Of a stretch of DNA of 64,000 nt, positions 6,589-61,526 are shown piece after piece. The notes under the pieces were generated by a model that had not been told where the DNA came from, did no database searches, and saw nothing but the letters and a program-made list of their open reading frames with translations. Every line of letters starts with the position of its first letter. The stretch's first letter is position 1. The translations under genes and the position numbers were made by a program. Source of the stretch: Octopus vulgaris (Eukaryota); contig OX597815.1 in NCBI GenBank assembly GCA_951406725.2, positions 165,602,001 to 165,666,000 of the forward strand, given 5' to 3'.

Positions 6589-6882
6589 AAATTATAAATG
6601 TTATTACAATACAATAGTATTATTTGCAATTGACGAATATTTGTCCTCATCTTGTTTGTTTTAAACACAGCGTTTCGGTTGATATACCCTCCAGCCTTCA
6701 TCATGTGTCTTGGGGAAATTTCGAACCTGAGCTCTCATTCCTACAGTATTTTTCGATGTTATTATTATTATTATTATTATTGTTATTATTCAGGTCACTG
6801 CCTGGAATCTTGTGGTTGGTAGCCCGCGCTCATAACCACTACGCCATATGCCTGTGGGCCATTATGAAGTGAATTTTAGGGC

Positions 6883-8487
6883 TTATAAATATAATATTTT
6901 CCAATCCTTCCTTAATACCGGTTCCCATATGCTACTCATATCAGCACTCGGTCTGCTTAGGAGGTTGTTGTGTCCTAGCATATGTGCTGCTTCTTTTGGT
7001 TTTCGTTGTTTCCGGTGGTGTTCTCTATCTATTATTTTAACTTCATCCCACAAGGGGAGGTGGTCTCCATTTTTCCTTACATGATCAGCTATACCCGATT
7101 TATCAATATCTCCTCGTGTCACAGCTTTGCAATATTCGTCTACCCTAATTTTGAGGGGGCGGCATGTTTCGCCTTTGTATAACCTACCACAACTGTATGG
7201 GATGGAGTACACGCAGTTTTTGGTCATATTCTCTTCTATTGGTGGTTTTACCAAGAGGGAATATTTGCGAAGTATTGTATTACTTTTGAATATTGTGCTG
7301 ATGTAAAATGGGCGGCATATCTTTTGTATCTTTTCGGAGAGGATTTTCACATAGGGTAGACAGACTGTAGACAGTTTATTGGTTTCATCCTCTCTTTTCT
7401 TCATAATTGGAGTAGCTAGTATGTTTTGGGGGTAGTTGTTGAATAATAGATTGTTACCGAGCTTGATCATTTCTTCGTGGTGGGTATCATGATTGCTACT
7501 TATATTCTTTGCTCGATGTTTTAGGCACTGAGCAATTCCTCTCTTTATACGGAATGGATAGTGGAAATTGAAGTTAAGGTATCGTCCAGTGAAGGTCGAC
7601 TTGCGGTATACGGATTTCCTGAATCCATACTTGGTGCGTGTTATTAATACGTCCAGGAATGCTACCTGATTGTCTCTTTCCTTTTCCATTGTGAACTGTA
7701 TGGATGGCTTTATTGAGTTTACATGATCTAACAGCACTTGGACATCTTCCTGGTGGAGCCAGAGTATGAAGGTGTCATCAACATCTCGCAGCCATAGGGT
7801 TGGTTTTAATGGTGTTGATCCTAAAGCCAAATTCTCAAAATATTCCATGTATATATTGGCTATTATCAGTGATAAAGGCGAGCCCATAGCTAAACCCTCT
7901 TCTTGTCGATATATCTCATTGTCCATACTGAAACAGGTAGTTTCAACACAGAAGGTCAACATTTCCATCAAGTTTTTTATTGGTATACTAGTATGTTCTT
8001 TTAGATGGGTGTCTGTCAGTAGTTTTTCTTGAATCACCGATAGTGCTTCACCAGTTGGGACTTTGTTGAACAGACATATCATATCTAGACTCACTATCTG
8101 GTTGGATTCAATGGGGGTATCCTTGATCAATTCTGTGAAGTGGGTGGAATTTTTCACGCATGACGTTGACTTTTCTGCTAATGGACTGATTATATCCACA
8201 AGGAAGCGGCTCAGTGGATGATATGCTGAACCTCTACAGCTCACTAAAGGTCTAAATGGAAAACCATCCTTGTGAATCTTAGGGAGACCGTATATGTGTG
8301 GTAGTTTACTGTAGTGTTGAATCAGTTGTCTGTACTTCATTGGTGTAAAGTGATCCATGTTCTTGATCAAGATCTTTGACAATTTCCTCTCTGTTTTCAG
8401 AGTTGGGTCTTTCTTTACTTTGCTGTAGCTTCCATCCTTTATAAGACTTGCCAGTTTTTCCGAGTAGTCAGACTTGTTCATCACCAC
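6883..8487 (-). pseudogene. Penelope reverse transcriptase / GIY-YIG endonuclease ORF (Poseidon-like), probably inactive
   Basis: Motifs IYGLPKIHK..RP, GLAMGSPLS, WLRDVDDTF (YVDD altered), AFLDVLI, SVYRK, CVYSIP..CG.LYKGET. The frame continues upstream through ILPADKGNAT to ~8585. Confidence 0.9.
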
Positions 8488-8884
8488 TGTAGCATTTCCT
8501 TTGTCCGCCGGAAGTATTACTATGGAATTGTCACTCTGTAGTCCTCTGATAGCGAACTTTTCTTCCTTAGTGATGTTTGGTTTGGGAAATGATCAAGCTC
8601 AGTAACAATCTATTAAGCAAAACTACCCCCAAAACATACCATCTTCACCAATTATGAAGAAAAGAGAGGAGGAAACCATACCTGTGGGATGAAGTTAAAA
8701 TAATAGACAGAGAACACCACTGGAAAATACGAAAACTAAAAGAAGCAGCACATATGCGAGGGCACAACAACCTTCTAAGCAGGCCGAGTGCTGATATGAA
8801 TAACATATGGGAACCGGTATTAAGAATGGATAGAAAAATATTAGATTTATAAACCCTAAAAAATTCACTCCATAATTGCCCACG

Positions 8885-8955
8885 GGCATATGGCCTAGTG
8901 GTTAAGAGCGCGGGCTACTAACCCATGTTCCGAGTTCGATTCCAGGCAGTGACTT
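8885..8955 (+). promoter_or_regulatory. tRNA-like Pol III internal promoter inside the Penelope terminal repeat
   Basis: A box TGGCCTAGTGG, anticodon-like loop ggg-CTACTAA-ccc, B box GAGTTCGATTCC. Confidence 0.75.
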
Positions 8956-9031
8956 GAATAATAATAATAGTGACGACAACAACAACGAAAAATACCTTAG
9001 GAACGAGAACCTAGATTCGAAATTTCCCCAA

Positions 9032-9077
9032 GACACCTGATGAAGGCTGGAGAGTATATCAGCCGAAACGTTGTGTT
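9032..9077 (+). ncRNA. Minimal type I hammerhead ribozyme (Penelope pLTR)
   Basis: gacac-CTGATGA-a-ggctg..cagcc-GAAA-c-GTT-gtgtt; palindromic AACGTT stem III, GUU cleavage triplet. Confidence 0.8.
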
Positions 9078-9666
9078 AACAAGATCAGGACAAATATCCG
9101 TCAAATGTAAATGTTCATAATTCCTCATCTCTTAAATATAGAACTGTAATATTATTATTTTCCTGCGATAAGCCTGGAATAGCGCTATGTAAAGCTTCAC
9201 TGAAAGTCTGAAACTCAAGTACAAGGTTGTTCCTTTCTCTGGCGTTTCTCCTAGAGGTAAGACGAAATATTTTTATGTTCGTCGCCCTCACGCATTTTTG
9301 CCTCTATACATTCATTGAAGCTTTACTTAGCGTCGTACAGTTATCGACTGCTATTTCCAACAAATAACAGCATGTAAATATTGGGTTCAAAATCCCGTTT
9401 AGATAGGCGGTCATGTTTACAGGAGATGTAGATACATGGCTCTATATGTACTTCGAGTTCCAGTTCTAGAAAAAGAATTATATGCATAAGACTACTAAGT
9501 GTAGAGTATTGACAGAAAATAGAGTTGCCCTTCCTGGGTCGTAGGTTCATAAGGCCTGTCTTCAGGATTCTATGGTGTAGATATTCCTTCTCCTCCAACT
9601 CCACCACACAAACCACCTGTCCGGGACACAGGTACGTCAGAGGAATATATATATATATATATATAT

Positions 9667-10060
9667 AGGCGGACGAGTGACTGTGTGGTAAGTAGCTTGC
9701 TTACCAACCACATGGTTCCGGGTTCAGTTCCACTGCGTGACACCTAGGGCAAGTGTCTTCTACTATAGCCTCGGGCTAACCAAAGCCTTGTAAGTGGATT
9801 TGGTAGACGGAAACTGAAAGAAGCCCGTCGTATATATGTATGTATGTGTGTGTATATGCTTGTGTATCTGTGTTTGTCCCCCCAACATCGCTTGACAACC
9901 GATGCTGGTGTGTTTACATCCCCGTAACCTAGCGGTTCGGCAAAAGAGACTGATGGAATAAGTACTAGGTTTACAAAGAATAAGTCCCGGGGTCGATGTG
10001 CTCGACTAAAGGGGTGCTCCAGCATGGTCACAGTCAAATGACAGAAACAAGTAAAAGAGT
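9667..10060 (+). mobile_element. CORE-SINE (OR2-like)
   Basis: gtgtggtaagtagcttgc...gggttcagttccactg head; cacctagggcaagtgtctt core; same family at 35367-35835 and 61530-61918. Confidence 0.85.
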
Positions 10061-17418: not shown

Positions 17419-17835
17419 CACAAAGGGTTAATACCATCCGTTGGCAGATTCAGCATGATACTGTGCGTGACAAAACTGCCTCTTTGAATAACAACTGTGA
17501 ACCAACCGATGAAATTCCTCCAAAGTATGTTTGCCAAATTTTATTCACAAGGCTTCGGTCACCTCGTTACTGTGTAAAAAATATACTTACAATGAACGCA
17601 GTACAGTGGTACCGAACCTGAGATCTTATGATTGCAAAGCGAACTTTTTAATCATTCAGCCATCTCTTTTTTGTCACACACACATACACACAATGGCATG
17701 CCTTTGAACAACGGACCAACACTAGTTCCTGTTTTCTTTTGTAGACATTTAATGTATAACTTGTGTCAAAAGTAGTTCACAACATCGGTATCGGAAGAGA
17801 AATGTTAAATAATAGACAAATAAAATGTGGTTGTA

Positions 17836-17999
17836 TATTTAAGAGATGAGGAATTATGAACCTTATTTACATTTGACGGATATTTGTCCTCATCTTGTTT
17901 GTTGCTAACACAACGTTTCGGTTGATATACCCTCCAGCCTTCATCAGGTGTCATGGGGAAATTTCGAACCTGGGTTCTCATTCCTAAGGTATTTTTCGA

Positions 18000-18074
<75 letters not shown>

Positions 18075-18147
18075 CATTATTCAGGTCACTGCCTAGAATT
18101 GAACTCAGAATCTTGGGGTTAGTAGCCCGCGCTCTTAACCACTACGC
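17836..18147 (-). mobile_element. Stand-alone tRNA-head/(AAT)n/hammerhead module
   Basis: Matches 8890-9148; hammerhead core intact at 17907-17952; 3' hairpin agatgagga/tcctcatct. Confidence 0.88.
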
Positions 18148-18189: not shown

Positions 18190-18653
18190 AAAGATGGGTT
18201 ACAGCAAATATTCTGCTCAATACCACAGATTTGCTTGTCAGTTGTTTGACCTTAACCAGTTGAACATGTCCCTTAGTGGCTGACGATATGTGCATCTCTG
18301 ATCACGAGCAGAAGTAGTGGGGGAGCATCATAGCCATGTGTTGAGAGGGATTCTTTGGGGTTTGAATAATTCACCTGTGGAAACATGGGTGGTTCTTTCA
18401 ACATCCTTAAACAACCCTTATTCAGGGACCGTTTGAGCGGGATGTGCTACTCAACCTGAAGAAAATTCTAACTGGGCCCCACCTGCAAGGTCATGTGCTG
18501 TTTATCTTGATATGAGATCACCATGTCGCGCACATATGGTTGTGATGCATGTGCCTGGTGTACCTTTATCAGACGGGTAGTCATGATGGGTATATTGGGC
18601 TTCGTATATTTTACCCCAGTGTCACTTTGATGGCATGAACTGCTCTCTCACTC

Positions 18654-18654
<1 letters not shown>
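18190..18654. mobile_element. Unclassified ~465-bp insert within (AAT)n
   Basis: Complex sequence flanked by (AAT)n on both sides; no ORF recognised. Confidence 0.45.
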
Positions 18655-18716
<62 letters not shown>

Positions 18717-18840
18717 AACATCGAAAAATACCTTAGGAATGAGAATCCACGTTCAATGAAGGCTGGAGGGTATATCAGCCGAAACGTTGTGTTAACAACA
18801 AAGATGAGGACAAATATGCGTCATATGTAAATAATGTAAA
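18655..18840 (+). mobile_element. Partial hammerhead module (head lost, core partly deleted)
   Basis: (AAT)n-aacatcgaaaaataccttaggaatgagaa...ggctggagggtatatcagccgaaacgttgtg. Confidence 0.8.
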
Positions 18841-19554
18841 TAGAATGTTTTTTCTCACACTTCTCTGTTGGTCACGTGACACAGTGTCATCTGTTTAAGA
18901 CATCTTTCCAACAAGGGTTTCTATATATCTCATCTTTGTTTATTTATTTGTTTCATTTCCCTCTCTCTCTCACTTTGTGCTTTTCCTCTCTCACACTTAA
19001 CCACTCACTCCGTTGCAGTGCATGCTTCGTTCTTAACATCATTTTAATTACGTTCCTTATCTCCAACATCTAGATGCCCTCTTCACGCACGCACTCATTC
19101 TCTACCTTTTCATCCTGTTTTCCTGTTTCCGAACGCACACTCATATACGCACTCACACACACACTGAAGCACTCACATATACACACACTCGCACACACAC
19201 CCACATTCTCTCTCTCGCGCACATACACATGTACACGTTTTATTTATTCTGTCGTTAATTCCTTGTGCGCCCGATAAAACGTTTTCAGATTTCAGACTTT
19301 TTTCCGATATCTTTTACAGTGCTTCGGGGTATGAAATATTCTAATATTTGTTGTCAGGAGCTAAAAACAGAACAAATTACCAAAAAAAAAAAAAAACTAT
19401 ATCGAAATCTTCTTGAAAATATATGTGCAATGCAAAATTTAAGTTACCTAGGTGCATAACTTTCGCCTACAACTTCGTCTACACACTCACACACACACAC
19501 ACACACATGCGTGTGTACCTTTCTATAAACGCACATTTACTTTATATATTGATT

Positions 19555-26979: not shown

Positions 26980-27044
26980 TACCTCTGACGGGACTCGAAC
27001 CCGCAGTCCCCGGCTTTGGAGGCCGGTGCCTTATCCACTGGGCT
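26980..27044 (-). pseudogene. tRNA pseudogene, Arg(CCT)-like body with a CCA anticodon, 5' acceptor strand missing
   Basis: Reverse complement agcccagtggataaggca-ccggc-ctCCAaa-gccgg-ggact-gcggg-ttcgagt-cccgt-cagaggta, with a TTTT run just downstream. Confidence 0.75.
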
Positions 27045-60949: not shown

Positions 60950-61096
60950 TTCATTATTTACATTATTTACATTATTCACATTCGACGGATATTTGTCCTC
61001 ATCTTGTTTGTTGTTAACACAACATTTCGGCTGATAACCTTCAGGTGTCTTGGGGAAACTTCGAACCTGGGTTCTCATTCCTAAGGTATTTTTCGA

Positions 61097-61136
<40 letters not shown>

Positions 61137-61200
61137 CAGGTCACTGCTTAGAATCGAACTCGGAATCTTGGGGTTAGTAGCCCGCGCTCTTAACCACTAC
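60950..61200 (-). mobile_element. Stand-alone tRNA-head/hammerhead module, (AAC)n variant, ribozyme partly deleted
   Basis: Reverse complement matches 8890-9120. Confidence 0.85.
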
Positions 61201-61201
61201 T

Positions 61202-61276
61202 GGCATATGGCATAGTGGTTAAGAGCGCGGGCTACTAACCCCAAGATTCCGAATTCGATTCCAGGCAGTGACCCGG

Positions 61277-61339
<63 letters not shown>

Positions 61340-61526
61340 TCGAAAAATACCTTAGGAATGAGAACCCAGGTTCGAAATTTTCCCAAGACATTTGAAGAAG
61401 GCTGGAGGGTATATCAGCCGAAACGTTGTGTTAACAACAAACAAGATGGGGACAAATATCCGTCGAAGGTAATTAATGTAAATAATATAAATAATGTACA
61501 TAATTCCAAATCTCTTAAATATAGAA
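61202..61526 (+). mobile_element. Stand-alone tRNA-head/(AAT)n/hammerhead module
   Basis: Starts at ggcatatggcatagtgg (the tRNA head); core TTGAAGA...GAAAcgtt; abuts the opposite-strand copy. Confidence 0.88.

Follow-up and report, generated by a model that had tools for sequence, protein, structure and literature searches.

A Penelope-like element of Octopus vulgaris with a tRNA-like head in its terminal repeat, a candidate for a coding retrotransposon transcribed by RNA polymerase III

Autonomous retrotransposons are taken to be transcripts of RNA polymerase II (Pol II), and RNA polymerase III (Pol III) to serve short non-coding passengers. Penelope-like elements (PLEs) of the Penelope/Poseidon type, such as PAc of Anolis, possess an ORF for a reverse transcriptase (RT) with a C-terminal GIY-YIG-like endonuclease, a terminal repeat (pLTR) and a hammerhead that overlaps the ORF start (PMC11167929; PMC4209133). 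PAc further has inverted 5' arms, numerous solo pLTR fragments and a tail that is optional and gives two 3' ends, and in the accessible parts of both papers a tRNA-like head, A and B boxes or the use of Pol III are not mentioned. In Schistosoma, repeats named Sm-alpha and Sj-alpha combine a tRNA-related Pol III-type promoter with a following hammerhead and reach high copy numbers, but they are non-coding, often arranged in tandem and contain active, multimer-cutting ribozymes, and the accessible text does not name their partner element (PMC6765202; PMC2770079). The TRIMp3 elements Cassandra, Helenus and Ajax carry a small-RNA-derived Pol III promoter in their terminal repeat, probably acquired by SINE insertion, and are non-autonomous LTR elements of 311-1263 bp (PMC10886601). 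ORF-free, pLTR-related sequences that are moved by PLE proteins are represented by animal non-LTR retrozymes (bioRxiv 10.64898/2026.07.22.740005) and by non-autonomous Chlamys elements such as MRC1 (PMC8557442). Retrozymes are defined by tandem units, and a term search of the available preprint text for tRNA, Pol III or octopus gave no result.

The locus analysed here lies in a window of 64,000 nucleotides (the whole stretch of DNA under study; assembly GCA_951406725.2, contig OX597815.1) and belongs to a Penelope whose terminal repeat is of a new kind. A tRNA-like head sits at the start of its pLTR, and its sense strand has no family-wide run of four T (T4); the layout is Poseidon-like only in that it resembles PAc. 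In contrast to Sm-alpha and Sj-alpha, the module stands at the 5' end of an element that codes for protein, and its copies are dispersed, uncleaved and often inverted; whereas TRIMp3 elements are non-autonomous, the octopus element, a PLE, has a 2.5-kb ORF of its own. Retrozymes require tandem head-to-tail units with a hammerhead in each; the copies examined here stood alone, were inverted or formed partial tandems that include ORF stubs, and no separate lineage was detected. The closest precedents are schistosome Sm-alpha, for Pol III and hammerhead, and TRIMp3, for a Pol III promoter in a terminal repeat, both of them non-coding. We are confident that the head marks an end of the RNA and that Penelope made the copies. 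On balance, we favor the explanation that the head would be the promoter and 5' end of the RNA of the whole element, likely synthesized by Pol III, and that ORF-free copies would be by-products of reverse transcription, with the identity of the polymerase as the weak step. That the head likely serves the whole element is a stronger claim than that of the first-pass annotation of the window. The full proposition is an autonomous coding retrotransposon that has captured a tRNA promoter from which Pol III makes its ~2.9-kb template RNA, that has lost Pol III terminators from its ORF and whose translation is possibly cap-free; it seems to us evenly poised between true and false. In the full-text literature searched, which left most subscription papers outside, we found neither a Penelope with a tRNA-derived or Pol III promoter nor a Pol III-made autonomous retrotransposon. 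Repbase, Dfam or SINEBase may already list the module, whether as a SINE or as a Penelope, and the repeat library of PMC13282606 may already name the Penelope family.

The first-pass annotation had listed six occurrences of the module in the window and interpreted it as a candidate SINE mobilized by Penelope. All six arms were confirmed (Table 1), but they derive from four insertions, since 6624-9148 and 60950-61526 represent one insertion each: the former consists of an ORF copy at 6624-8592 (minus strand) with an inverted arm at 8586-9148, the latter is a head-to-head inverted pair, and the copies at 17831 and 18651 are single insertions. As had been noted before, three ORF-free copies begin at or within the head, namely the 17831 and 60950 arms in the A box and the 61197 arm at the head itself. 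Among the parts of the module, the head with A and B box is present as described in the 8885 copy, but the 6624 arm has lost its B box; the minimal hammerhead was found again at 9032-9077, but the core pattern was failed by the 6624, 18655 and 60950 arms; the 3' hairpin is present, but it closes the optional Penelope tail. The 569 codons without a stop at 6883-8592 are unusual for a family with ~6% divergence, whose other long matches mostly carry stops. Elsewhere in the window, at 26988-27044 (minus strand), an incomplete tRNA match passed the Rfam cut-off (40 bits), whereas ARAGORN made no call there. Further abundant interspersed repeats lie at 9670-10050 and in family D20 (2609, 15130, 34308, 41791, 60159 and others); one of these repeats has its own tRNA-like head, which resembles the module head in the anticodon and T arms.

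Table 1. Positions of the Penelope parts and module copies within the window
Feature	Position	Strand	Remarks
5'-truncated Penelope ORF, RT and GIY-YIG-like endonuclease	6883..8592	-	569 stop-free codons
RT DKG; RT catalytic motif; GIY-YIG-like endonuclease	8505; 7791; 7215-7179	-	DKG and GIY-YIG-like motifs read by eye
3' pLTR of the 6883-8592 ORF copy	6624..6852	-	head, (AAT)n, altered-core hammerhead, no tail
A box of the 6624 arm	6836-6846		B box deleted
Inverted arm, same insertion as the 6883-8592 ORF	8586..8884	+	ORF pieces 8586-8678 and 8683-8852
Stop codon	8850-8852	+	followed by a linker of 32 nt, at whose end a short palindrome extends across the head start
tRNA-like head	8885..8955	+	likely start of the element's RNA
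A box; B box	8891-8901; 8934-8942	+	
(AAT/AAC)n tract	8956..8987	+	variable length; second hot spot for 5' junctions
Likely ORF start codon position	9003..9005	+	ATG in the 17836, 60950 and 61202 arms; ACG in the 8885 copy
Minimal type I hammerhead within the first ORF codons	9032..9077	+	predicted cut after 9072; fold and motifs; consensus features from PMC4209133
Hammerhead core; GAAACGTT; GUU	9037-9043; 9065-9072; 9070-9072	+	
Hairpin arms and optional Penelope tail	9081..9148	+	arms 9081-9090 and 9122-9130; tail of 30-35 nt between two 3'-end clusters
ORF-free pLTR copy	17831..18147	-	starts within A box; long (AAT)n; with tail
Headless ORF-free copy from the (AAT)n tract	18651..18841	+	joined to the end of another repeat; damaged hammerhead; no tail
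Arm of inverted pair	60950..61211	-	starts in A box; hammerhead partly deleted
Other arm of inverted pair	61197..61526	+	starts at head; with tail
TTTT in the 61202 arm	61378-61381		

The protein encoded at 6883-8592 is a Penelope-type RT with a GIY-YIG-like C-terminus. The architecture is that of PLEs of the EN+ type, namely a single ORF for a PLE-type RT with C-terminal GIY-YIG endonuclease and pLTRs in partial tandem or inverted arrangement with an optional tail of 30-40 nt. The RVT_1 match of the protein (P0001) was weak and below the curated cut-off, and close relatives scored above it. Among 7,999 scored candidates, 2,989 were homologs, the best of them PLE-like over their full length and some with PF01541, and the closest relatives had 55-69% identity. 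A PDB search with the protein returned only weak matches to group II intron RTs, and the viral contigs searched contained no relatives. In a distant-protein search, all 30 fetched loci belonged to this Penelope family, by place or by alignment. Animal PLE-like ORFs (L283-L290, L381-L384) also turned up in contigs of metagenomes and of MAGs labelled bacterial, likely as host contamination. The reading frame leads from an ATG inside the pLTR, upstream of the hammerhead, through hammerhead and tail into the N-terminus of the RT ORF, and this in-frame N-terminus matches the full-length relative P0004 across the hammerhead. The module cannot be regarded as a non-coding unit, because the likely ATG of the ORF sits inside it. 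Among the best 30 of 40 copies chosen by the ORF 5' region, 29 have a pLTR upstream and three reach the head start, where two of them begin (at -2 and +3) and one continues as tandem. The 20 extended loci examined did not include a complete pLTR-ORF-pLTR copy. Because the family is ~6% diverged, it may be inactive.

The head is a degenerate tRNA-like promoter region. Its A and B boxes match the consensus at 45-nt spacing and are intact in the family majority, and A plus B box at tRNA spacing occurred in 4 of 20,000 shuffles of a 2.6-kb copy. Four of four heads showed 67-71% identity to tRNA-Arg of this genome, which was the closest of the seven isotypes sampled (35 tRNA sequences as references), compared to 57-67% for shuffled heads. 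Octopus harbors tRNA-derived SINEs, OK, OR1 and OR2, reportedly described by Ohshima and Okada in 1994, with which the module would share a tRNA-Arg-like head. The SINEBase definition places the threshold for tRNA identity in SINEs at a minimum of 60% over at least 60 nt. ARAGORN (run on the window) and Rfam (run on the window and one intact pLTR) called neither a tRNA nor a hammerhead in the module. The head is integral to the pLTR and not an independent SINE sitting in only some pLTRs: of 11 other ORF copies fetched, two are 3'-cut and nine keep the 3' end, all nine with the head ~32 nt past the stop codon, and in 1.0 Mb of DNA that was unselected for the family, the pLTR body followed the head in five of five cases. 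Among 251 heads in selected loci, 230 precede the pLTR body; of the remaining 21, 20 lead into the same (AAT)n tract and one is another SINE. About 20 arms (L407, L403, L385, L353, L296, L318 and others) consist of head and (AAT)n only, like simple tRNA SINEs, and several of them are inverted arms of larger insertions.

Counts of exact motif matches drop from the 3' to the 5' side of the module (2,087, 1,281 and 790), heads not being in excess. Evenly spaced samples totalling 800 kb contained 11 loci, from which we roughly estimate ~40,000 loci for the whole genome of 2.8 Gb in 227 contigs; this sample served for density only and held too few loci for an end map. In size and number (below 1 kb, interspersed, at least 100 copies, given 790-2,087 exact motif matches) the module agrees with SINEBase. 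To map 5' ends, copies were chosen by exact 3'-side motifs, so that the 5' extent had no influence, and the initial DNA search, which had the head in the query, was left out of the end statistics. The hammerhead-anchored set comprised 90 loci (92 arms) from the first 100 of 1,281 listed matches and the 3'-anchored set 70 loci (71 arms, three duplicates dropped) from the first 100 of 2,087, in both cases exclusively on contig C1. Among 160 arms, 59 reach +8 of the head and 41 of these stop at -11 to +8, with agreement between the two sets (22/30 and 19/29). The 5' ends are thus non-random, as the first-pass annotation had supposed: per 100 nt, 5.4 stops occur at the head start, compared to rates of 0.52 for the interior of the head, 0.45 for the body and 0.1-0.4 for the ORF, and a rate ten times the background is not explained by simple truncation. 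These ends fall 7-12 nt upstream of the A box. Pol III is expected to start at just such a distance upstream of an A box. A second peak of 5' ends in the (AAT)n tract (31/114) is partly an artefact of tract collapsing and partly due to joins to AAT tails of other repeats.

At the opposite side, ORF-free copies have 3' ends in two clusters ~30-35 nt apart, which is the Penelope tail signature and differs from the simple-repeat 3' tail of SINEs that are reverse transcribed by a partner LINE. Because they end at the two 3' sites of Penelope, Penelope likely made them, in line with the earlier proposal that it mobilized the ORF-free modules. No convincing target-site duplications flanked eight simple head-start copies, the exceptions in this search being a 10-nt match in L124 and low-complexity matches. 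The hammerhead consists of the core, an extra base before the 6-bp stem II, a palindromic stem III and a 5-bp stem I, so that all features of the minimal motif are present (PMC4209133), and it resides in the pLTR as in other PLEs; Rfam gave no match. The same paper reports that a single minimal hammerhead did not cut in vitro (PMC4209133). In the 3'-anchored set, 5 of 71 starts lie within 169-176, without a clear 5'-end peak at the cut site, a place where the hammerhead-anchored set is unable to reveal ends. Together with the 45-85 nt that ORF-free copies retain 3' of the predicted cleavage site, this does not support the earlier suggestion of self-cleaved RNA as template, and the copies appear to be made from uncleaved RNA. 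In some RNA viruses, self-cleavage can drive cap-independent translation (PMC13725137); the cut predicted here would fall after the likely ATG.

A full-length Pol III RNA requires a sense strand without T runs. In the column majority over 114 aligned segments (2,635 nt, depth at least 19), we found no run of four or more T and 14 T3 runs. A codon-aware null model over 793 codons predicted 4.6 T4 runs (P=0.005), and runs of the other bases were not significantly depleted (C 5 of 5.0 expected, A 28 of 31.8; G4 runs were likewise absent, with 1.6 expected). Base shuffling predicted 4.7 T4 runs (P=0.008) and a dinucleotide model 2.9 (P=0.05). Single copies contain 0.5 T4 per kb, and the most shared T4 site was present in 6 of 42 copies. 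In a set of nine copies, the number of T4 runs per copy ranged from 0 to 3 with no run in common, T5 was absent and A4 runs numbered 20-28; the window's own Penelope copy has three T4 runs and, taken alone, shows no depletion. As controls, 15 RT ORFs (four LINE families of this genome and 11 PLE-like ORFs from contigs of other animals) together contained 97 T4 runs with 88.5 expected, the lowest being two headless ORFs, one without any T4 run (1.1 expected) and one with two (5.1 expected). Next to their ORFs, the eight PLE-like loci of metagenome contigs and the four of MAG contigs showed no B-box match in the flanks available, and they were used solely as controls. Within the module, the reported lack of TTTT did not extend to the 61202 arm or to 4 of 22 head-start copies elsewhere. 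The absence of T4 would provide modest support, as a necessary condition that holds in one family at odds of roughly 1/20 to 1/200.

The head is likely to mark the 5' end of the RNA of the autonomous element because the ORF starts in the module, ORF-reaching copies start at the head, and ORF-free copies have no private changes and point to an uncleaved template. Pol III would initiate a few bases upstream of the head and, without a terminator, would read through pLTR, ORF and pLTR over ~2.9 kb. The protein might be translated from this RNA or from a capped transcript that reads through the element. On the uncleaved RNA, the RT would initiate at either tail site: a start in the 5' pLTR would run off at the RNA end after ~250 nt and result in a solo or inverted pLTR, and a start in the 3' pLTR would give ORF-bearing copies. 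The ~40,000 short copies would accordingly represent by-products shed by Penelope. The head itself would likely have been acquired when an ancestral Penelope inserted into the tail of a simple tRNA-(AAT)n SINE. Internal initiation of the RT at two tail sites on uncleaved RNA has been shown in vitro for an Anolis Penelope (PMC11167929). Against this explanation, Pol III products are usually shorter than 700 nt (PMC10886601), and autonomous LINEs and LTR elements are made by Pol II (PMC3531059). A Pol III RNA would be uncapped. The missing complete pLTR-ORF-pLTR copy, the ~6% divergence and the RNA-seq runs without a pile-up of starts likewise count against it.

In the rival model that follows the first-pass annotation, the autonomous element is transcribed by Pol II, and solo or 3' pLTRs give rise to short Pol III RNAs that Penelope proteins copy in trans as a self-propagating SINE. 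We consider this unlikely, and the two models are not mutually exclusive. Head-stopping copies outnumber those that enter the ORF by 41 to 18, size and copy number of the module (11 loci in 800 kb) would suit a SINE, a T4 is available in the downstream 350 nt for 21 of 22 head-start copies, and non-autonomous PLE derivatives are known (PMC8557442; bioRxiv 10.64898/2026.07.22.740005). However, no diagnostic column separated 41 head-start ORF-free copies from 31 ORF-linked pLTRs over 215 columns (lowest P 0.008, none after correction), a weak test because the two groups were not selected alike; a non-autonomous, self-propagating family was not apparent in this small sample, in which minor lineages may remain. 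Moreover, some head-start copies run on into the ORF, the RT of Anolis needed ORF sequence downstream of the tail (PMC11167929), which solo copies lack, and the T4-free ORF is left unexplained. From the idea of a Penelope-mobilized SINE, we thus retain the head as integral part of the pLTR, the non-random 5' ends and the Penelope-type 3' ends, but neither the separate SINE nor the self-cleaved template.

Two further readings concern the head start itself. Pol II might start the RNA there from a pLTR promoter, as in Drosophila Penelope, with the head as relic of a captured SINE and the T4 absence as chance. Start site and promoter indeed lie in the pLTRs of Penelope and Chlamys (PMC8557442), a capped mRNA is easily translated, the dinucleotide null reaches merely P=0.05, and A and B boxes alone are no proof of Pol III use (PMC3531059). 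We nevertheless regard this reading as quite unlikely, given that the 5' ends lie at the position of a Pol III start, that both boxes are intact in the family majority, and that the depletion is specific for T runs and absent from the pooled controls. Very improbable, in our judgement, is the absence of any RNA end at the head, in which case the RT would stall or fold back on a longer RNA at the short palindrome overlapping the head start. This palindrome exists (-5.4 kcal/mol as RNA, -2.8 as cDNA) and is the centre of symmetry in several inverted pairs (e.g. L166, L185, L188 and L163). A count by eye, however, leaves roughly 25 of the 41 head-stopping copies at odds with this reading: 12 lack an inverted arm, and 13 are joined to an arm with a start elsewhere. 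The stronger stem II of the hammerhead (-6.7 kcal/mol) causes no such pile-up, and the stop rate is lower upstream of the head than downstream, as for two RNA populations.

If the favored explanation of a Pol III-made coding Penelope is true, the split between autonomous Pol II elements and Pol III-dependent SINEs is erased, as one element would play both parts. A Penelope that combines a tRNA promoter with an ORF free of terminators would provide a natural example of a long Pol III unit with coding capacity and raise the testable question of how such an RNA is exported and translated; further cases could be sought by a simple screen for a tRNA head combined with a T4-free ORF. The weaker reading, in which the head is a precise marker of the RNA 5' end, also has consequences. 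Since it marks this end precisely, the genome copies support in vivo the internal initiation that so far a single lizard element has shown in vitro. They also illustrate how Penelope, with no separate SINE involved, can give rise to a SINE-like population.

A search of sequencing runs listed no RNA source. We mapped ~6% of each of three raw RNA-seq runs (one study, related organism) to a natural head-pLTR-ORF copy at 85% likeness. In the pLTR, the two strands were covered equally, at a depth of 200-2,100 per direction, compared to 0-20 in the ORF, and 88-89% of the reads ran on into unlike sequence; no pile-up of starts or ends was listed for these three runs. This pattern is that of copies inside host transcripts and speaks neither for nor against a Pol III RNA.

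In 17 of 39 copies with the ORF 5' region (counted by eye), an ORF stub runs straight into a new pLTR piece, and these pieces were therefore likely copied beside ORF-bearing RNA. The joins fit an RT that starts at the tail and then jumps downstream on ORF-bearing RNA. Stubs that end 165-265 nt past the tail, the lower bound being set by the query, before a new pLTR piece were observed in L434, L438, L323, L337, L348, L333, L338, L433, L437, L325, L339, L344, L329 and L322, and would represent the footprint of short-range template jumps that build the partial tandems of Penelope. L338 and L433 (both on C3) share an identical ORF-stub-to-head junction and could belong to a small, internally deleted family; their flanks do not align outside the element, and we rejected them as a mini-element family because two copies are too few. 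Headless copies were repeatedly joined at (AAT)n to the same two foreign repeat ends (window copy 18651 and L126, L132, L167, L216, L375 and L397; L128, L198 and L341). This suggests targeting of, or template switching onto, the AAT tails of other repeats, and is a present-day parallel to how the head could have been captured.
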